Shown here: positions 5,658-53,573 of the stretch, piece after piece
Layout: each line of letters starts with the position of its first letter
Position numbering within the stretch: position 1 is the stretch's first letter
From: an uncultured Prevotella sp.
GTDB taxonomy: Bacteria > Bacteroidota > Bacteroidia > Bacteroidales > Bacteroidaceae
Assembly: GCA_964599665.1 (NCBI GenBank)
Contig: CAZRGO010000010.1
Span: 9,935-73,934 of the forward strand
Length of the DNA stretch: 64,000 bases
Reading direction: 5' to 3'
The notes under the pieces: generated by a model
Told to the model about the DNA's origin: nothing
Databases searched by the model: none
The model's input: the letters and a program-made list of their open reading frames with translations, nothing else
Made by a program: the position numbers and the translations under genes

Positions 5658-5743
5658 TATAAAAGGCCTAAAAATACTTAACCACTACAATAAAGAAAGC
5701 GGTAATAATTAATAACCACAACACCCATAGACGAAGAAAACAA

Positions 5744-6730
5744 ATGGAAAACAAAGAACAAAATAAAAGTGTATTGATAGCATTGGCTGCATTCGCCAGC
5801 GTTGTTGTGATTGTAGGTATCATCGGTTTCCTCACTATTGGCAAAGACAATGAGATAATACAAGGCCAAATAGACGTTGAAGAATACCGTGTTTCAAGTA
5901 AGGTGCCGGCACGCATTCTGGAGTTTAGAGTAAAAGAAGGCGACTACGTACACGTAGGAGACACGTTGGTAATACTTGATGCTCCTGACGTGGAAGCAAA
6001 GAAGCAACAGGCGGAAAGCGCAGAGAACGCAGCGGCAGCTATGAGCGATATGGCACAGGCAGGAGCACGCAAAGAACAGGTTCAAGGTGCATACGAGCTA
6101 TGGCAACAGGCAAAAGCCGGGCTGGAGATACACAAAAAGTCATACGAGCGCATACAGCGATTGTTTGACGAGGGTGTAATGAGCGAACAGAAGCGTGATG
6201 AAGCCTATGCCGGTTACAAGGCTTTTGAAGCACAGGAAAAAGCGGCAAGAAGCCAATATGAAATGGCGAAGAACGGTGCAAGAGCTGAAGAAAAAGCTGC
6301 AGCAAAAGCACAGGTAAACCGTGCAAAGGGCGCTGTAAACGAGGTGGAATCATATATAAGAGAGACTGTTCAGACAGCACAAATGGAAGGCGAGGTCACA
6401 ACTATATATCCCAAGATAGGAGAATTGGTAGGCAGTGGTTCACCTATTATGACTATAAGTATAATGGACGATGTATGGGGAGCATTCAACATACGGGAGG
6501 ATCTGCTAAACGGCATGAAACAAGGGGACACATTCACAGCATACATACCGGCATTCAGCAAAGAAGCGATATTCAAGATAACAAGCATAAAAGACTTGGG
6601 TAGTTATGCGACATGGAAAGCGACCAAATCCAACGGGCAGTACGACATGAAGACATTTGAGGTAAAAGCACGACCAACAGAGAAATTTGAGGGACTGCGC
6701 CCCGGAATGTCGGTCATTATAAGGAAATAG
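5744..6730 (+). CDS. HlyD/YbhG-type membrane fusion (periplasmic adaptor) protein
   Basis: 328 aa. It has an N-terminal TM anchor, a lipoyl-like segment (VKEGDYVHVGDTLVILD), a long coiled-coil hairpin and a C-terminal beta-barrel (GMSVIIRK). Confidence 0.85.
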   Translation: MENKEQNKSVLIALAAFASVVVIVGIIGFLTIGKDNEIIQGQIDVEEYRVSSKVPARILEFRVKEGDYVHVGDTLVILDAPDVEAKKQQAESAENAAAAMSDMAQAGARKEQVQGAYELWQQAKAGLEIHKKSYERIQRLFDEGVMSEQKRDEAYAGYKAFEAQEKAARSQYEMAKNGARAEEKAAAKAQVNRAKGAVNEVESYIRETVQTAQMEGEVTTIYPKIGELVGSGSPIMTISIMDDVWGAFNIREDLLNGMKQGDTFTAYIPAFSKEAIFKITSIKDLGSYATWKATKSNGQYDMKTFEVKARPTEKFEGLRPGMSVIIRK

Positions 6731-6756
6731 CAATAGGTAGCATACAATAACAGGCA

Positions 6757-7926
6757 TTGAATGCAAACAATAAAATAACGGCATCATTTAGGCGTGAGAT
6801 ATTGATAATCTTGCGTCACCCCATATATATAATATGTATGGTAATATTACCGATGCTCGCCACATACTTTTTCACATCACTATTGGACAACGGTCAACCA
6901 GTGAGGATGCCGATAGGCATCGTTGATAACGACAACACAACGGTAACACGTAAGATGATACGCCTGATAGATGCATTCCAATCATCAGAGGTTGTGGCGC
7001 ACTATCCTTCTGTAGCAGAAGCCCGCAAAGCCATACAGCAAAATAATATTTATGGGTTCATATATTTCCCGGAAAACATGACACAGGAATTGCTATCCGC
7101 CCGACAACCCAAAATGTCCGTATATTTCAGCAACACATCGGTAATGGTAGGCTCACTGTTATTCAAAGAAATGAAGACACTTTGCACACTGGGTTCCGCA
7201 TCGGTAGCACTCGCCACCATGCAGGCAAAAGGTTTCACAGAGAAACAGGCCATGGCGATACTACAACCCATACAATTAGACACACACGCTATAGGCAACC
7301 CATGGATAAACTATAATATATATTTAAGCACAATGGTTGTACCGGCATGCCTGCTGTTGTTCGTTTTTTTACTCACAGCATACAGCCTCGGCACCGAAAT
7401 CAAGTTCGACACACACAAGGAATGGCTGGAGACCGCAAAAAACAATATGGCTCTCGCCCTATTCACCAAACTACTGCCCCAAACATTAATCTTCACCGTT
7501 ATGTTGACGGCATGTATGACCTATATGGCCGGACCACTACATTTTCCTGCGCCCGGAGGCATTACACACATAATACTATACAGTATATTAAGCGTACTCG
7601 CTGCACAAGGATTTGCCGTATTCATATTCGGGCTTATTCCCTCTCTGCGTATGGCAATGAGCATATGCTCGCTTTGGGGCGTACTGAGTTACTCTATGGC
7701 GGGAACGACATTTCCTATATTTGCTATGGATCCGCCACTACAGGCATTGGCTTTACTGTTCCCACTACGGCATTCTTTCATCATATACCATACCTGCATA
7801 TTCAATGATTTTCCATTAAACTATGTAACAACACATATAATAGCTTTACTAATATTCACCATACTACCAGCCTTAATCATACGACGCATGAAAAAGGCAT
7901 TCAGCCAATATAGTTATCAGCCATAA
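6757..7926 (+). CDS. ABC-2 type transporter permease (YbhS/YhhJ-like)
   Basis: 389 aa. One N-terminal TM, a ~150-aa extracytoplasmic domain, then 5 C-terminal TM segments. Follows the HlyD gene after 26 nt. Confidence 0.8.
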   Translation: MNANNKITASFRREILIILRHPIYIICMVILPMLATYFFTSLLDNGQPVRMPIGIVDNDNTTVTRKMIRLIDAFQSSEVVAHYPSVAEARKAIQQNNIYGFIYFPENMTQELLSARQPKMSVYFSNTSVMVGSLLFKEMKTLCTLGSASVALATMQAKGFTEKQAMAILQPIQLDTHAIGNPWINYNIYLSTMVVPACLLLFVFLLTAYSLGTEIKFDTHKEWLETAKNNMALALFTKLLPQTLIFTVMLTACMTYMAGPLHFPAPGGITHIILYSILSVLAAQGFAVFIFGLIPSLRMAMSICSLWGVLSYSMAGTTFPIFAMDPPLQALALLFPLRHSFIIYHTCIFNDFPLNYVTTHIIALLIFTILPALIIRRMKKAFSQYSYQP

Positions 7927-7933
7927 CACACGT

Positions 7934-9073
7934 ATGCTCACCGAACTGAAAAACATATTGAAAGACGAAGGGGTATTGTTGTTTTTCTTCTTTCTGCCGA
8001 TTGTATATCCATTACTATACTCATGGATATACAACAATGAGACTGTGCGCGATGTACCGGTAGCATTAGTAGACAATTCACATTCAACGACAAGCAGAGA
8101 GTTTTGGCAAAAGTGTGACGCTACCCCGGATGTCTGCATTGCATACCATTGTGCTGACATGGAAGAGGCAAAGAAATTAATAGGCTTGGAAAAAGTTTAT
8201 GGTATAATATATATTCCTGTTGACTTTGAGAAAAAGATTGGACGACACGAACAGGCACACATCTCTGTTTATTGCGACATGAGCTACATGCTTGCATATA
8301 AAGCTATTGCCACAACAACTGCTGCCGTATCAATGGATATGGGGGCTGAAATACAACGTAGTCTGATGAGCAACAAGACACAACGGGAAGACGAGATAGC
8401 AAGTAGACCGCTGGATTTTGACGAAGTTTCTATTTTCAACGCACCCGGTGGCTACGGCAATTTCATGTTACCCGGAGTACTGATACTAATCATACAACAG
8501 TCTATCTTACTCGGAGTTGGCATGATAGCAGGCACAGAAAGAGAACATCGATTCGCTAATTACAGGCGCACAGCAGGCTATTCGCAGCTATGGCAAGCTG
8601 TAAAAATATTATGCGGGAAATCATGGGCATATATACTCATATTCGCCGTAATGTTGGCATGGGTAACACTCGCTATACCACACATTTTCGATTTTGTTTC
8701 ATTAGTACACGGCAAAGATTTATTGCTGTTCCTTACACCATACCTGCTGGCCTGTGTACTATTCGCCATAACATTCAGCGAAATGGTACGCTACAGAGAA
8801 AGCGTAATGCTGGCAGTAGTATTCACTTCTGTAATCTTTCTATTTTTATCAGGACTCAGCTGGCCACAAGCCGAAACACCCGGCGTTTGGCAAGGAATAG
8901 CAAACATCTTGCCATCAACATTCGGGATAAGGGGATTTGTAAGAATGAGCAGTATGGGAGCATTATTGCCTGATGTGACAAAAGAATGGTGCGCACTATG
9001 GGTACAGGTTGCCTGCTATGGAATTACGGCATTATTCGTAATATGGTGTAGAGTCCACATCAGCGAAAAATAA
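7934..9073 (+). CDS. ABC-2 type transporter permease (YbhR-like), paralogue of the preceding gene
   Basis: 379 aa with the same topology as 6757-7926. Separated from it by 7 nt. Confidence 0.8.
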   Translation: MLTELKNILKDEGVLLFFFFLPIVYPLLYSWIYNNETVRDVPVALVDNSHSTTSREFWQKCDATPDVCIAYHCADMEEAKKLIGLEKVYGIIYIPVDFEKKIGRHEQAHISVYCDMSYMLAYKAIATTTAAVSMDMGAEIQRSLMSNKTQREDEIASRPLDFDEVSIFNAPGGYGNFMLPGVLILIIQQSILLGVGMIAGTEREHRFANYRRTAGYSQLWQAVKILCGKSWAYILIFAVMLAWVTLAIPHIFDFVSLVHGKDLLLFLTPYLLACVLFAITFSEMVRYRESVMLAVVFTSVIFLFLSGLSWPQAETPGVWQGIANILPSTFGIRGFVRMSSMGALLPDVTKEWCALWVQVACYGITALFVIWCRVHISEK

Positions 9074-9212
9074 AAATAAGGACACAATATAATCAAATAA
9101 ATTACGTTATTTATAGAAAACGACACGTAACAGGTCAAGTGCGAGGAATAATGCCCGCACTTATCTATTTCATTAGAAAAGCAAAAACATTTATATCTGC
9201 TAAAAAATTACG

Positions 9213-15683: not shown

Positions 15684-16588
15684 CGACGATAAAAAGACTT
15701 ATCTGGTCTATTATATACTGGACACTCGGAACGTTTTCGCCACAAACCTTGGTTTCATTACATTTCCGCAGAAGTCTCCATCATTCACTAAATTGGAAAA
15801 ATCCAAGAGATATAAATGAAAAGATACAATGGCTTAAATTCAATTCAGATACATCTACATGGACTGATTATGCAGATAAATACCGTGTCCGCAAGCATAT
15901 AGAAGAAACAGGACTTGGATATATGCTCATACCGCTCATTGGAATATGGGAAAAAGCAGAGGATATAAACTGGAACGTACTACCAAATAAATTCGTAATG
16001 AAAACGAACCACGGTTGTGGAGATGTACTAATATGTAATGATAAGTCCTCACTTGATATAAAAATATGGACGAAACATTTTTCCAGATTAATGAAAAAGA
16101 AATTTGGTAAGAAAATGGGAGAGCCACATTATAACAAAATTCGTCCTTGTATCATTGCCGAAGAACTATTGGATAGTACAAAACAACAGGTAAAGTCCAC
16201 ATCGCCGGTAGATTACAAAATATGGAGTTTTAATGGAAAACCTGCTTATATATGTACTTACCACAACCGTACCAAGGAATCATGTGAATTGGGTATATAC
16301 GACCTTGAATGGAATTTCCATCCCGAGTTCATAAAACCTAACGCTCATTATACAATCACAAAAAATCCGATTCCACGTCCAAAAGCATTAAAAGATATAC
16401 TCAATGCAGCATCAAAACTCAGTAAAGGATATGCAATAGTAAGGGTCGACTTTTACGTGATTGATGATAAACCATACTTTGGAGAAATGACATTCACTCC
16501 AAGTGCCGGATTTAATTGTTCCTACACACAAGAGTTCTTAAACATACTTGGTGATATATGCAACATACATGCCAACACTAAGATTTAA
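15680..16588 (+). CDS. TupA-like ATP-grasp amidoligase-family protein
   Basis: Start placed at the ATG (MTTIKRLIW...) that overlaps the wzx stop as ATGA. Motifs NWKNPRDINEKIQWLK, FVMKTNHGCGDV, DYKIWSFNGKP and VRVDFY..DDKPYFGEMTFTPSAG match the ATP-grasp TupA family. Confidence 0.7.
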   Translation: MTTIKRLIWSIIYWTLGTFSPQTLVSLHFRRSLHHSLNWKNPRDINEKIQWLKFNSDTSTWTDYADKYRVRKHIEETGLGYMLIPLIGIWEKAEDINWNVLPNKFVMKTNHGCGDVLICNDKSSLDIKIWTKHFSRLMKKKFGKKMGEPHYNKIRPCIIAEELLDSTKQQVKSTSPVDYKIWSFNGKPAYICTYHNRTKESCELGIYDLEWNFHPEFIKPNAHYTITKNPIPRPKALKDILNAASKLSKGYAIVRVDFYVIDDKPYFGEMTFTPSAGFNCSYTQEFLNILGDICNIHANTKI

Positions 16589-35693: not shown

Positions 35694-35752
35694 CATAAAA
35701 ACAAAAGCACCCGTTGGCAATCTCACATACATGAAATTTGCAACGGATGCTT
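35694..35752 (-). terminator. Intrinsic terminator of the beta-barrel OMP gene
   Basis: Hairpin at 35705-35752 (GCACCCGTTGGCAA / TTTGCAACGGATGC). Its single mismatch becomes a G-U pair in the minus-sense RNA. Followed on the minus strand by TTGTTTTTATG. Confidence 0.7.
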
Positions 35753-35801: not shown

Positions 35802-36527
35802 TTAGAAGATATAGCCCAAAGTAATATAATGATTATTTGTAGTAAGTTTTACACCACTACCGCTGTATTCCCATTTATAATAGTTAATAAGATCCTGCTG
35901 AAAACGATAGCCAAAAGACATTTGCTTGGAAAGAATGAAATTTACACCTACATTCATGCCAACCTGAACCCTATTTGCAGTAGAACCGACATCAAAAAGT
36001 TTTTCCATATCTGTTTCATTAAACATACTAAAAGAATACTGATTGTTGAGTTCAAGTGTACCGACAGCATTTATTTTCAAGTTAAAGCCAACATACGGAG
36101 CGATAGTGAATTTATTAGATGCCGGTATATGATAGGTTACATTTACAGGTATTTGCACATTCAACATATTCACATTCACGTCCATGTATTGATCATAAGC
36201 CGCCACAACCTCACTGCCGGAAGTATAATTCAACTCACAACCAAGTTCAAGAAACAGAGGCTCCGACGATGTCAAACTGAAAGCATGAGAATAGCCTATG
36301 TTTGCACCAATCATACTAAAATAGTCCACACCACCAAAATAATAAGCGGCATCATAATTGTTCAAACGCCCAAACCCACCGACACTCGCACCACCAAAGA
36401 CGACAGAAGCATACACTTTGTCGTAATCCCCAACAGCATTTGATGGTTTAACAGATAATGATGGCTCAGCAACAGAAGTCAAAGAGGCAGACAACATCAT
36501 AGTCATCGCAATAAAAATCTTTTTCAT
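35802..36527 (-). CDS. Outer-membrane beta-barrel protein (OmpA-beta-barrel/porin-like small OMP)
   Basis: 241 aa with a signal peptide (MTMMLSASLTSVA). Alternating aromatic/Gly beta-strand pattern and a terminal ...YITLGYIF with C-terminal Phe. Confidence 0.7.
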   Translation of the reverse strand: MKKIFIAMTMMLSASLTSVAEPSLSVKPSNAVGDYDKVYASVVFGGASVGGFGRLNNYDAAYYFGGVDYFSMIGANIGYSHAFSLTSSEPLFLELGCELNYTSGSEVVAAYDQYMDVNVNMLNVQIPVNVTYHIPASNKFTIAPYVGFNLKINAVGTLELNNQYSFSMFNETDMEKLFDVGSTANRVQVGMNVGVNFILSKQMSFGYRFQQDLINYYKWEYSGSGVKLTTNNHYITLGYIF

Positions 36528-36560
36528 TGTAGAATAATTTTAATGATTAATATATGTTTA

Positions 36561-36934
36561 TATAACAAAAAGCGTGGGGAAGCTGTAACTTACTTATCCC
36601 ACTCACGAGGCTCTGGTAAACCTAAACTATAAGGATAAGCAACCAGTTAGCCCACGCCGGCAGGATATTATATAAACACCCACACATACGTATATGACAA
36701 TCTGCGTTCACAGACAACACGTATGCGAAATGATGTAGGATATAAAACCACCTACATGGACGTTCCGTTGCGTCTCTTCTTATAGTTTTTCGAGAATTTA
36801 CCAGATTTTCGAGAGTAGAAGATAAACGTTTGTAAACGTCCCAACCAATATGTCAATAGGGAATAATCCCATATTTTCACACCGCTACAACGGTGTTAGA
36901 AACCCTCTTTCCCTTTCCGAGGCTAACTGGTTTC
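36561..36934 (-). ncRNA. Candidate structured 5' leader / attenuator RNA (or independent ~370-nt ncRNA) upstream of the OMP gene
   Basis: No ORF of 60 aa or more in any frame. Promoter immediately upstream (next feature). 12-bp long-range helix 36641-36652 / 36921-36932. Nested helices 36572-78/36651-57 and 36593-99/36633-39 are followed on the minus strand by TTTTT, about 38 nt before the OMP ATG. Several internal hairpins are present. Confidence 0.35.
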
Positions 36935-36939
36935 CGCTG

Positions 36940-36971
36940 CAAATTTAGTCATAATATTTAACATTTACAAA
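36940..36971 (-). promoter_or_regulatory. Promoter (-33 TTTG / -7 TAAATTTG) driving the leader and OMP gene
   Basis: Plus-strand CAAATTTA at 36940-36947 and CAAA at 36968-36971, giving an exact consensus with a 20-nt spacer on the minus strand. The predicted TSS at about 36934 abuts the first helix strand. Confidence 0.5.
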
Positions 36972-36995
36972 TTTTACCCTCATTTTTTACAATGC

Positions 36996-37043
36996 AAAAC
37001 GGCATGAATAGCAAGATTCATACTATGCTACTCACGCCGTTTT
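36996..37043. terminator. Hairpin terminator downstream of recQ (usable on both strands)
   Basis: AAAACGGCATGA (36996-37007) pairs with TCACGCCGTTTT (37032-37043), with an inner TAGCA/TGCTA stem. U-tract TTTTCTTTTTA on plus; GCCGTTTT on minus. Confidence 0.55.
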
Positions 37044-37126
37044 CTTTTTATATTTTCAGAGCGACAAAATAAAATTGTATCATACTGTCACTATCACAAT
37101 TGCGGCAGGACAGTAAAATCCAATTA

Positions 37127-39295
37127 TCAATTCGCCATCTCCGAGATAAACATAATCCTTACAAGTCTTATATCCTCATCGGAATAATCACCGGAAAACT
37201 CGTTGAACGCTTCTTTAAGGCTATCCGTTTCCGCCTCAGAGAAGTAGTCATATATATCGTCTATCTCCTCATCGTACATCGTATCCTCGATATAATACTC
37301 TATGTTCAGTCTCGTACCACTGTACACTATGGCCTCCAATTCGTCCAACAGTTCAACGAATTTTATTCCGAGAGATTTCGCAATGTCGTCCAAGGGCATC
37401 TTACGGTCTATACACTGCACAATCTTTACCTTTCTCATTGAGTTCTTCGCCACGCTTCGCACCCTCATATCCTCAGGCCGAACGATGTCGTTTTCCTCAC
37501 AATATTTCTTTATAAGGTCGCAGAATGGCTGTCCGTATCTCTTGGCTTTGCCCTGCCCTACCCCCTGCACATTCTGCAATTCCGCCAATGTCACAGGGTA
37601 CATCGTGGCCATTTGTTCGAGCGAACCCTCCATAAACACAATATACGGCTGTACATTATGTTTACGTGCCTCACTCTTTCTTAGGTCCTTTAGCATTGCA
37701 TACAACACGGGATCCAATGCCCCGCCACTTGCCGCACCAACCTCTATGGCATCTTCGTTGAACGTATTGTCTTCTGTAACATAAAACGCCTGCGGTTCCT
37801 TCAACCATCGTTTGCCCGCCGCTGTAACTTTCAGGTTACCGTATGTTTCTATGTCCTTTCTAATAAGCCCATCCACCATGGCCTGCCTCAGTATAGGATT
37901 CCACAAGCGGTCGTTCATACCCTCACCGCATCCGAAGTCTGCATGCAGATGGTGCTTATGCGATTCGATATCATCCGTAGAACGTCCCTTAATGAAATCC
38001 AGAACATAACTGCTGCGATAATTTTCCTTCAAGGCCATGACAGCAGTCATCATCGCCTCCAATCCTTTCGTAGCATCAACCTTTATCTTCGGCTGCATAC
38101 AGTTATCACAGCTGCCACAGTTATCTTTCGGATAGTCTTCTCCAAAATATTTCAGCAACATCTTCCTTCGGCATATGGACGATTCGGCATACGCCGCAGT
38201 CTCCTGTAGCAGATGTTTTCCAATCTCTTGTTCTGCCACCTGCTTGCTATCCATAAACTTTTCCAGCTTCTGCAGATCCTTTTGCGAATAAAAGACGATA
38301 CATTTTCCCTCGCCGCCATCACGTCCGGCACGTCCTGTCTCCTGATAATATCCCTCCAGAGACTTTGGGATATCATAGTGTATAACAAACCTCACGTCCG
38401 GTTTATCAATGCCCATACCGAACGCTATCGTTGCCACTATCACATCTATCCGCTCCATAAGGAAGTCGTCCTGTGTCTGATTACGCACAGAAGTGTCCAA
38501 TCCCGCATGGTATGGCGCTGCTTTTATGTCATTAGTTTTCAACACCTCCGCAAGTTCTTCCACCTTTTTCCTCGCCAGACAATATATTATACCACTCTTT
38601 CCGACATTCTGTTTTACAAACTTTATTATCTGTTTGTCAATGTCTGCCGTCTTTGTACGCACCTCATAATACAGGCTTGGCCGATTGAAAGAACTCATAA
38701 AGTCCTTTGCATCCGTTATACCGAGATTCTTTTTAATGTCTGCCCTGACCTTCTCCGTTGCCGTTGCCGTGAGTGCAATGATTGGCGCACGGCCTATTTC
38801 CTCTACAATCGGCCTTATCCTACGGTATTCTGGTCTGAAATCATGTCCCCACTCAGATATGCAATGTGCCTCATCAACCGCATAGAAAGATATTTTCACG
38901 TCACGCAAAAAGTTTATATTTTCTTCCTTTGTCAATGATTCCGGAGCCATATACAGCAACTTTGTGACTCCTGCCTTCACATTTCTCTTCACCTGTTCTA
39001 TTGTGGTTTTATTCATAGAAGAGTTAAGGCAGTTTGCCACTCCGTCATGCTCGCTTATGCCATTGATTACATCCACCTGATTCTTCATCAGCGCAATGAG
39101 GGGCGATATGACTATAGCCGTCCCCTCCATCAGCAACGACGGCAACTGGTAGCACAAAGACTTACCTCCGCCTGTAGGCATGAGCACAAACGTGTCATTG
39201 CCTGCAAGCAGATTTCTTATCACCGCTTCCTGTTCGCCCTTGAAAGAGTCGAAGCCGAAGTATTGTTTCAGTTTTTCAGTAAGGTTAATTTGCAT
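37127..39295 (-). CDS. recQ: ATP-dependent DNA helicase RecQ
   Basis: 722 aa. Motifs FGFDSFKGEQEAVI, MPTGGGKSLCYQLP and DEAHCISEWGHDFRPEY, a Zn-binding C4 region (CRRKMLLKYFGE...CGSCDNC), RQC and C-terminal HRDC (VQPYIVFMEGSLEQMA). Confidence 0.93.
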   Translation of the reverse strand: MQINLTEKLKQYFGFDSFKGEQEAVIRNLLAGNDTFVLMPTGGGKSLCYQLPSLLMEGTAIVISPLIALMKNQVDVINGISEHDGVANCLNSSMNKTTIEQVKRNVKAGVTKLLYMAPESLTKEENINFLRDVKISFYAVDEAHCISEWGHDFRPEYRRIRPIVEEIGRAPIIALTATATEKVRADIKKNLGITDAKDFMSSFNRPSLYYEVRTKTADIDKQIIKFVKQNVGKSGIIYCLARKKVEELAEVLKTNDIKAAPYHAGLDTSVRNQTQDDFLMERIDVIVATIAFGMGIDKPDVRFVIHYDIPKSLEGYYQETGRAGRDGGEGKCIVFYSQKDLQKLEKFMDSKQVAEQEIGKHLLQETAAYAESSICRRKMLLKYFGEDYPKDNCGSCDNCMQPKIKVDATKGLEAMMTAVMALKENYRSSYVLDFIKGRSTDDIESHKHHLHADFGCGEGMNDRLWNPILRQAMVDGLIRKDIETYGNLKVTAAGKRWLKEPQAFYVTEDNTFNEDAIEVGAASGGALDPVLYAMLKDLRKSEARKHNVQPYIVFMEGSLEQMATMYPVTLAELQNVQGVGQGKAKRYGQPFCDLIKKYCEENDIVRPEDMRVRSVAKNSMRKVKIVQCIDRKMPLDDIAKSLGIKFVELLDELEAIVYSGTRLNIEYYIEDTMYDEEIDDIYDYFSEAETDSLKEAFNEFSGDYSDEDIRLVRIMFISEMAN

Positions 39296-41257: not shown

Positions 41258-41546
41258 AATTCTTCACAAGAATAAAAATAAAGTACAAATAATAAATATA
41301 ATTCACATTAGCAATCGCCTCCACACGATCAACGCAACCGATACGATTGTTCCCCTACAACCGCCCGCATGCAAGCGGACACGCCCACCGTTCTATGCGT
41401 TAATCGCCCGCAACACAATGCTTATTCTCCCGTTTGGGAAGAGTTCAGCGCATTACGCAACGATAGAACAAAATTAATTGTTTTTTTTCTAATATCCAAA
41501 TTTTTCTCGGACTTTTTTTTGAAAGTGGCATCTTATTTCACACGAA

Positions 41547-52779: not shown

Positions 52780-52802
52780 ACAAGAATATCTTCAACCACC
52801 GC

Positions 52803-53573
52803 ATGATAGAGGTAAAAAACATAACAAAGGCATTCGGAAAGCTACAGGTTCTCAAAGGAATCGACCTGCAGATAAACAAGGGAGAGATTGTCAGTATAGT
52901 GGGACCAAGCGGCGCAGGCAAAACAACACTGCTGCAGATAATGGGAACATTGGACAAGGCTGATAGCGGAACAGTGGAGATTGACGGCGTTAAAGTAAGC
53001 CGGCTGTCCGGCAACAAGTTGGCGGATTACCGCAATCGCCACATCGGTTTTGTGTTCCAGTTCCACCAATTGCTGCCGGAATTTACCGCAGAGGAGAACA
53101 TATTAATCCCGGCTCTCATAGCAGGAACGAAACGAAGCGTGGCTAAAGCCAAAGCTAAGGAGCTACTTACATTCCTCGGTATGCAGGAACGCGCCTCGCA
53201 TAAGCCGGCAGAACTGTCGGGAGGCGAGAAGCAACGCATTGCAGTGGCAAGGGCTTTGATAAACAATCCGGATGTGGTATTTGCCGACGAGCCGTCCGGT
53301 GCTCTCGACACTAAGAACAAACGAGAGTTGCATCAGTTGTTCTTTGACCTGAGAGATAAACTCGGACAGACATTCGTGATAGTAACCCACGATGAGGAAC
53401 TGGCTACCATCACCGACCGTACCATACACATAGTGGACGGACTGATAGCGGATAAGGATGCGACAGCAACGTCACAGGACGATAACAACGCCATGACAGA
53501 AGACGAAGACAACATAAATATGGTGGAGAACCATTGCGACAACGAAAAGGAGGAAACAATCAATGAACAATAA
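52803..53573 (+). CDS. lolD: ABC transporter ATP-binding protein (LolD/FtsE-like) with acidic C-terminal tail
   Basis: Start at [11 protein letters not shown]. Walker [10 protein letters not shown], signature LSGGEKQR, Walker [13 protein letters not shown]. No permease gene is adjacent. The lolD assignment is by family resemblance only. Confidence 0.75.

Follow-up and report, generated by a model that had tools for sequence, protein, structure and literature searches.

Terminator/antiterminator leaders in bacteria, such as riboswitch platforms, T-box leaders and the targets of TRAP, PyrR and BglG/SacY, have a long leader directly behind the promoter, a hairpin resembling a terminator, with its U run, shortly before the coding sequence, and upstream sequence with which the 5' half of that hairpin can pair instead. 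We find the same arrangement on the minus strand of a 64,000-nucleotide (nt) stretch of DNA from an uncultured Prevotella sp. (contig CAZRGO010000010.1 of assembly GCA_964599665.1, hereafter the window), in the gap between recQ and a 241-amino-acid gene predicted to encode an outer-membrane protein (OMP) of the beta-barrel type. As in the known leaders, the element is more conserved than the gene it would regulate, and there is a tandem short repeat (UCUCGAAAA, twice) on the strand that would decide the outcome. In contrast to them, it has no known aptamer or protein-binding motif and no Rfam match, its antiterminator would be a helix of ~76 bp rather than a short stem, the equilibrium strongly favors read-through, and it occurs in only a few close lineages of Prevotella. 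It works in the manner of a terminator/antiterminator leader, yet no described family includes it. It stands out for how long and how invariant in sequence its antiterminator helix is, and for its very narrow distribution. Our preferred reading, to which we would give a little less than an even chance, is that the OMP mRNA carries it as a structured 5' leader that acts in cis and is specific to this lineage. It is a real new candidate RNA, narrowly distributed and with thin comparative support.

The Escherichia coli ompA leader is ~133 nt long, with two hairpins and no terminator. Like that leader and those of other OMP mRNAs, the Prevotella element would be a structured 5' untranslated region (UTR) before a small beta-barrel OMP gene, and by analogy it could conceivably affect mRNA stability or translation. 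Unlike the ompA leader, it is three times longer, includes a terminator-like element, and shares no sequence similarity with it. Regulatory RNA is poorly charted in the Bacteroidota, which have no Hfq, make no classical use of Shine-Dalgarno sequences, and typically have 5' UTRs of ~30 nt (PMC7366714). Because the median 5' UTR in B. (Bacteroides) thetaiotaomicron is 32 nt (PMC7366714), a leader of ~408 nt is exceptional, and it is unusual in this phylum that the core of a 400-nt leader should be better conserved than the housekeeping genes around it. Prevotella is a dominant genus of the rumen and gut, and three competing folds around a terminator-like hairpin, if true, would make a tractable case of long-range RNA control of a surface protein. 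The very narrow distribution limits the value of the case.

A preliminary description of the region, made from the window alone, had proposed a promoter-driven, ORF-free, structured and conserved RNA in front of a beta-barrel gene (ORF, open reading frame), and this outline holds; its 12-bp long-range helix as the dominant fold does not. The promoter it pointed to (36971-36940) is present and canonical by the Bacteroidota consensus, which we took from PMC7366714, and, with both strands of 36450-37130 considered, holds the sole perfect TAnnTTTG box. The same motif scan, run on both strands, found no promoter-like box between the terminator-like hairpin and the OMP ATG, which bears out a further claim of that description and gives, at the level of motifs, the layout of an attenuation leader, with a promoter upstream of the element and none between element and gene. 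The 599-nt gap between recQ and the OMP gene has no ORF of 60 amino acids or more, as had been stated, the longest within it being 42 amino acids. Both promoter boxes are intact in L007 and L106 (L-numbers denote recovered loci or contigs related to the window).

The full promoter motif has six copies in the window, where 1.7 would be expected. Apart from the leader promoter itself, four of them end at a distance of 8-27 nt from a gene start and the fifth is 212 nt away, and because the copies sit before gene starts we regard the full motif as behaving like a real promoter signal in this genome. The distant copy (TTTG-N20-TAATTTTG, 41500-41469, minus strand) is the one upstream of the clpP start (region 41258-41500), and it implies that the window has another leader of unusual length.

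The unit that follows from the leader promoter has recognizable borders. Downstream of the OMP gene lies glyS, the name we use for a class II aminoacyl-tRNA synthetase that is a glycine-tRNA ligase going by cluster names. In at least 8 of the 80 GTDB Prevotella/Segatella recQ loci that we compared (L016, L018, L019, L021, L023-L025 and L027), recQ and glyS are only 41-150 nt apart, and in the aligned loci glyS keeps its own promoter box. The element itself was absent from all 80 of these recQ loci by blastn and nhmmer --max. The promoter, leader, OMP gene and following terminator-like hairpin (36971 to ~35697) therefore constitute a lineage-specific insertion of ~1.57 kb, located between the recQ terminator and the glyS promoter. 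Since these parts were inserted jointly and the gap has a single conserved perfect -7 box, we consider them one transcription unit, and the terminator-like hairpin after recQ sets recQ apart from it.

Contigs of relatives were found through the OMP proteins and their clusters. Among 5.8 billion protein sequences, the relatives of the OMP are very few and comprise one 90% cluster that includes the window, one protein at 69% identity (P0002), and others at 42% or less. Seven contigs (L001-L006 and L105) come from the same species as the window and have an identical element. A full-length element is also present in L007, where the OMP is 69% identical, and in L106, where it stands beside a truncated OMP gene. 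L107 and L014, with OMPs 93% identical, extend over the last 186 nt and 128 nt of the element at its 3' end, respectively. The alignment for substitution evidence thus draws on a single narrow clade, with three sequences that are full-length and two that are partial.

In 5.7 kb aligned between the window and L007, identity is 80-85% in coding sequence and 42-60% in other intergenic DNA. Against this background the segment 36843-36605 is 98, 93, 85 and 100% identical in successive 60-nt windows, and the core at 36843-36590, 95% identical, is the best-conserved stretch of the locus. Two blocks, 36843-36776 and 36682-36590, together 160 nt, show no change at all relative to L007. The core is under purifying selection at the nucleotide level and is not a decaying pseudogene.

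The predicted folds are strand-specific. For the minus-strand RNA 36934-36566 the minimum free energy (MFE) is -122.5 kcal/mol (z = -5.8) and for the plus strand of the same region -97 kcal/mol (z = -4.0); the L007 RNA reaches -138.9 kcal/mol (z = -6.6). The window, L007 and L106 share one MFE architecture, in which three small 5' hairpins are followed by a rod of ~225 nt with small internal loops only. Folded alone, this rod has -85.4 kcal/mol on the minus strand and -60.9 kcal/mol on the plus strand, a difference that is due to its many G-U pairs and argues for a structure formed in RNA and against a DNA palindrome. Its upper part (about 36761-36655) is kept when either alternative fold described below is forced on the L007 and L106 sequences, while its lower part (36820-36765 with 36645-36597) competes with both.

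One of these alternatives is the terminator-like hairpin, in which GCGUGGG at 36657-36651 pairs with CCCACGC at 36578-36572, followed by U5 at 36571-36567. Folded by itself it has -32 kcal/mol in the window, and about -30 to -32 kcal/mol across the three lineages, but it is atypical in that a 7-bp stem closes a 72-nt interior. All five sequences retain the stem and U5, although the 3' arm is shifted in register by 1 nt, with a closing pair that is G-C in the window, G-U in L007, L014 and L107, and A-U in L106, so a conserved GC-rich hairpin and U run do precede the coding sequence at short distance, as in attenuation leaders. A terminator with U5 before the ATG had been described previously with a spacing of 38 nt; the element is there, and 39 nt separate the end of the U run from the ATG.

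The other alternative is the 12-bp helix between 36921-36932 and 36641-36652. The complement is exact over 12 nt, as had been reported, with the two repeats 268 bp apart, and a perfect inverted repeat of this length was reached by none of 300 dinucleotide shuffles of the region. Its 3' arm overlaps the 5' arm of the terminator by 2 nt. In silico, the rod and the 12-bp helix each exclude the terminator, which is the mutually exclusive folding of an attenuation leader and agrees with the earlier proposal of competing pairings around the 5' half of the hairpin. The proposal that the 12-bp helix is the main antiterminator fold fails, since the rod is the MFE structure in three lineages (window, L007 and L106) and forcing the helix costs 7.3, 15.5 and 14.8 kcal/mol. 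Forcing the terminator stem costs 8.5, 15.4 and 10.7 kcal/mol. When we folded transcript prefixes, the 12-bp helix was in the MFE structure only for transcripts ending between about 36641 and 36620, the rod took over from 36610 onward, and the terminator stem was never in the MFE structure.

Sequestration of the translation start by the leader was also considered and rejected, as the best pairing partners of the OMP translation start differ between the window and L007. In L007 the stretch just before the OMP ATG, AAAACCAGUUAGAAAUG (L007:3985-4003, corresponding to window 36546-36528), includes a repetition of the 5' arm of the 12-bp helix and is able to form 10 bp with the 3' arm (-15.5 kcal/mol); no such copy exists in the window.

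In the mechanism that we propose, transcription would start near 36935 from the canonical Bacteroidota promoter, the first ~90 nt would fold into the three small hairpins, and the next ~225 nt would zip into the long imperfect hairpin. The lower rod would sequester both halves of the terminator-like hairpin (36657-36572, then U5), and because it masks the terminator, the rod would be the main antiterminator and the default would be read-through into the OMP gene. The terminator could form, 39 nt before the ATG, if the lower-rod 5' strand (36820-36765, with the two copies of UCUCGAAAA) were held elsewhere, either by an alternative local fold of its own or by a putative trans-acting factor. The 12-bp helix may be a third, transient alternative, favored only while the transcript end lies between about 36641 and 36620. 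The promoter motif, the conservation, the strand-specific stability, the pairing-compatible substitutions and the mutually exclusive pairings can be seen directly; transcription of the region, conditional termination and the existence of a factor we infer.

Substitutions mostly respect the rod. Across the alignment 95.9% of cells in the rod model are paired, and four double changes keep pairing: 36931:36902 in the first 5' hairpin (A-U to G-C in L007), 36892:36883 in hairpin 2 (C-G to U-A in L106), 36783:36629 in the lower rod, where the partners are 154 nt apart (A-U to G-C in L106), and 36715:36696 in the apical stem. The rod has further support from several changes that G-U pairing accommodates. 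Among varying pairs, six were kept and one broken in the helices specific to the rod, versus four kept and four broken in those of an alternative multi-hairpin fold. Two other details of the preliminary description can be judged here. Of its internal helices, 36879-84/36891-96 is kept and 36733-39/36751-57 is broken in L007 (A-U to G-A), and its direct repeat is present as a 12-nt repeat with one mismatch, of which both copies are unchanged in L007 and L106.

Several observations weigh against a cis-acting leader. The rod is more stable than the terminator state by 8.5-15 kcal/mol at equilibrium, so conditional termination would need a further factor. Conservation of the RNA core far exceeds that of the OMP protein that it would regulate, and the OMP homologues at ~40% identity lie in DUF4595-PD40-OMP operons or other contexts with no matching leader. 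As for covariation, which had been named as a check, rod pairs are mostly kept, but the shuffle control makes this only suggestive, since the observed double changes were reached by 28 of 500 shuffles; covariation is thus weak, with few sequences, and the structure tested was derived from one of the aligned sequences. The last such observation is L106 (Logan SRR28754688), whose glyS is 96% identical to that of the window at the nucleotide level. A deletion of ~506 bp, which rests on a single 1.6-kb contig, has removed the OMP translation start and codons 1-162 there and left a 74-amino-acid remnant ORF, and the promoter, the whole RNA and the terminator outlast it. The changes of L106 in rod pairs comprise eight one-sided changes that keep the pair and two compensatory ones versus two that break it, and the rod is still the MFE structure. 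Pairing that is mostly kept fits an RNA with its own function. On the other side, 11 changes in L106, on a short branch, fall within the two blocks that are invariant relative to the more distant L007, which implies that the constraint on sequence fell in the lineage without a functional OMP gene and that the function of the RNA is linked to the OMP.

The main rival of the leader reading is a stand-alone non-coding RNA (ncRNA) gene of ~365 nt, rod-shaped and trans-acting, for instance through binding to a protein or to another RNA, with its own promoter and an intrinsic terminator at 36567. The OMP gene would then be a mere downstream neighbor, expressed by read-through or functionally unlinked. 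The promoter and the terminator-like 3' end suit such a gene, as do a core much more conserved than the adjacent OMP gene (69% amino-acid identity) and the survival of promoter, RNA and terminator in L106 after OMP loss, with most substitutions keeping pairing. However, the terminator hairpin is not formed in the equilibrium fold, so no defined 3' end at 36567 is predicted; no separate promoter for the OMP is visible; the ultra-conserved blocks lose constraint in precisely the lineage where the OMP gene was lost; the deletion in L106, seen on one contig, may be recent or have arisen in assembly; and the element is in one narrow clade only, always at the recQ-glyS locus. We regard a stand-alone gene as possible but doubtful. 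A more specific form of it, a new class of autonomous rod-shaped ncRNA of ~365 nt in rumen Prevotella, whose invariant double-stranded stem is recognized in trans, for example as a protein-sequestering or double-stranded-RNA-like regulator that outlives loss of the adjacent gene as L106 suggests, seems to us rather unlikely. In being rod-like, mostly double-stranded and a few hundred nt long with its own promoter, the RNA resembles 6S RNA, but there is no Rfam 6S match, the predicted rod has small internal loops and no large central bubble, and the element is not universal and stands in line with a gene. The riboswitch-like model of the preliminary description, a ligand-sensing domain closed by the 12-bp helix as antiterminator against the nested terminator, is less probable again, and we would be surprised if it were correct. 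The exact complement beyond all 300 shuffles, the 2-nt overlap with the terminator arm and the MFE status of the helix in transcripts ending between 36641 and 36620 speak for it, as does the conservation of its arms: the 3' arm is invariant and the 5' arm has changed at three positions, only from A to G opposite U (36931 and 36928 in L007, 36928 and 36924 in L106). These changed positions lie also in or beside the local 5' hairpin, and it is in that hairpin that the 5' arm has a true compensatory change (36931:36902). Moreover, in the full-length RNA the helix is 7-15 kcal/mol below the rod in stability in three lineages, the domain it would enclose is a multiloop of ~8 hairpins of which one is broken in L007, no known aptamer matches, and the distribution, about four close lineages and always one locus instead of diverse taxa or a coherent gene set, is much more restricted than for any known class of riboswitch.

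The two remaining explanations fare worse. Perfect 12-bp inverted repeats 268 bp apart, in a segment that belongs to a lineage-specific insertion, recall a DNA-level element, either an invertible segment, a miniature inverted-repeat transposable element (MITE), or a long DNA palindrome, and Bacteroidales invertons likewise have short inverted repeats around a segment of ~270 bp upstream of a surface-protein gene. Unlike in invertons, the promoter at 36971-36940 lies outside the repeats (36641-36932), the immediate neighbors are housekeeping genes with no recombinase among them, and nine independent assembled contigs (L001-L006, L105, L007 and L106) show one orientation. As DNA the repeats have degraded to 10/12 in L007 and L106, whereas every change stays RNA-compatible as G-U in the minus-strand RNA, and one strand folds better than the other by 25 kcal/mol, unexpected for a DNA palindrome. 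The element is single-copy in the 64 kb, and no second copy was found in ~0.95 Mb of related Prevotella sequence or in the plasmid, phage, viral and JGI searches, so the suggestion that the repeats are inverton or MITE ends is not borne out and an element of this kind is very improbable. A small hydrophobic ORF (36872-36798, MGLFPIDILVGTFTNVYLLLSKIW) in a structured mRNA, acting in leader-peptide attenuation or as a type I toxin, is the least credible explanation of all. The ORF is present in the window and its peptide is hydrophobic, and long-range 5'-3' pairing, as known from hok-type mRNAs, has its parallel here. The 24-codon leader peptide that had been proposed nevertheless falls away in comparison, since its ATG is CGG in L007 and ATA in L106, the two relatives that cover it, L106 has an in-frame TAG at codon 9, and substitutions show no preference for synonymous sites.

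We searched for known families with covariance models. Against Rfam 15 in gathering mode, no family was found in the window, L007, L106 or L107, in agreement with the preliminary description, which could place the RNA in no known family. In E-value mode there were only sub-threshold matches of 15-22 bits, compared with gathering scores of 47-249, and the best of these were unrelated eukaryotic miRNA and snoRNA models. Our literature search found no described equivalent of the leader, and among the adjacent genes there is no reverse-transcriptase gene of the kind expected for a retron msr-msd. The coordinates of the features are collected in Table 1.

Table 1. Features of the recQ-OMP-glyS region, in window positions unless another contig is named.
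Feature	Position	Strand	Remarks
Bacteroidota sigma-A type promoter, TTTG-N20-TAAATTTG	36940-36971	minus	motif match; predicted start near 36935
Predicted 5' leader or ncRNA	36528-36935	minus	~408 nt; no conserved ORF
5' hairpin 1 (GAAACC...GGUUUC)	36899-36934	minus	holds most of the 12-bp helix 5' arm and competes with the 12-bp helix
Hairpin 2 (CACCG/CGGUG)	36879-36896	minus	one of the helices in the preliminary description; 100% of cells paired
12-bp helix, 5' arm AACCAGUUAGCC	36921-36932	minus	
12-bp helix, 3' arm GGCUAACUGGUU	36641-36652	minus	invariant in 5/5 sequences; inside the rod 3' strand
Rod-like imperfect hairpin	36597-36820	minus	~225 nt, ~76 bp; MFE fold
Direct repeat, two copies of UCUCGAAAA	36787-36814	minus	19 nt apart; lower-rod 5' strand
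Terminator-like element	36567-36657	minus	outer stem GCGUGGG/CCCACGC, inner CUUAUCC/GGAUAAG, then U5
recQ	37127-39295	minus	gene upstream of the gap
Intrinsic-terminator-like hairpin closing the recQ transcript	36996-37043	minus	18-nt arms, 89% complementary, then U run
241-amino-acid OMP gene	35802-36527	minus	predicted outer-membrane beta-barrel; signal peptide, C-terminal Phe
Terminator-like hairpin and U run after the OMP gene	35697-35750	minus	end of the inserted unit; read directly from the sequence
glyS own -7 box	35601-35594	minus	
Part deleted in L106	about 36545-36042; L106:575-832		on the L106 contig

On the minus strand the gene order is clpP, clpX, recQ, the gap, the 241-amino-acid gene, the class II aminoacyl-tRNA synthetase gene, an FKBP isomerase gene, and parC/gyrA. 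The OMP evolves fast, and hmmscan against current Pfam gave no family for it even at E = 1, so its family assignment comes from the precomputed annotation of an identical sequence (PF13505, OMP_b-brl) and from homologues (PF13505/PF13568). The hairpin at 35697-35750 was missed by the terminator scan because of its 20-nt loop. The whole 64-kb window is free of tRNA genes, and in it no Rfam family reaches its gathering score. Two large gaps that appear when only ATG starts are counted, 15684-16568 and 52780-53332, were considered as further ORF-free regions and dismissed, as they hold ordinary genes with other start codons.

Searches beyond the recQ loci returned nothing related from plasmid and phage collections (blastn) and nothing from a pattern scan of IMG/VR, and a pattern scan of JGI metagenomes gave five matches, none similar outside the 26-nt pattern. 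The FKBP-cluster contigs all break inside glyS, and none extends to the element. In the sister lineage, at least five independent Logan assemblies (L108, L110, L111, L113 and L115) break at an identical point inside glyS, 776 nt upstream of the FKBP gene at about window 34764, which suggests strain heterogeneity or an upstream repeat that stops assembly.

The RecQ of the window is at most 90% identical to the RecQ of uncultured Prevotella metagenome-assembled genomes (MAGs) from ruminant guts. The region after recQ is a synteny breakpoint in Prevotella: in some species glyS follows directly, and in the closest MAGs (RecQ 89-90% identical; L015, L017 and L028, about 5670-9160 in their own coordinates) unrelated convergent genes lie downstream of recQ.

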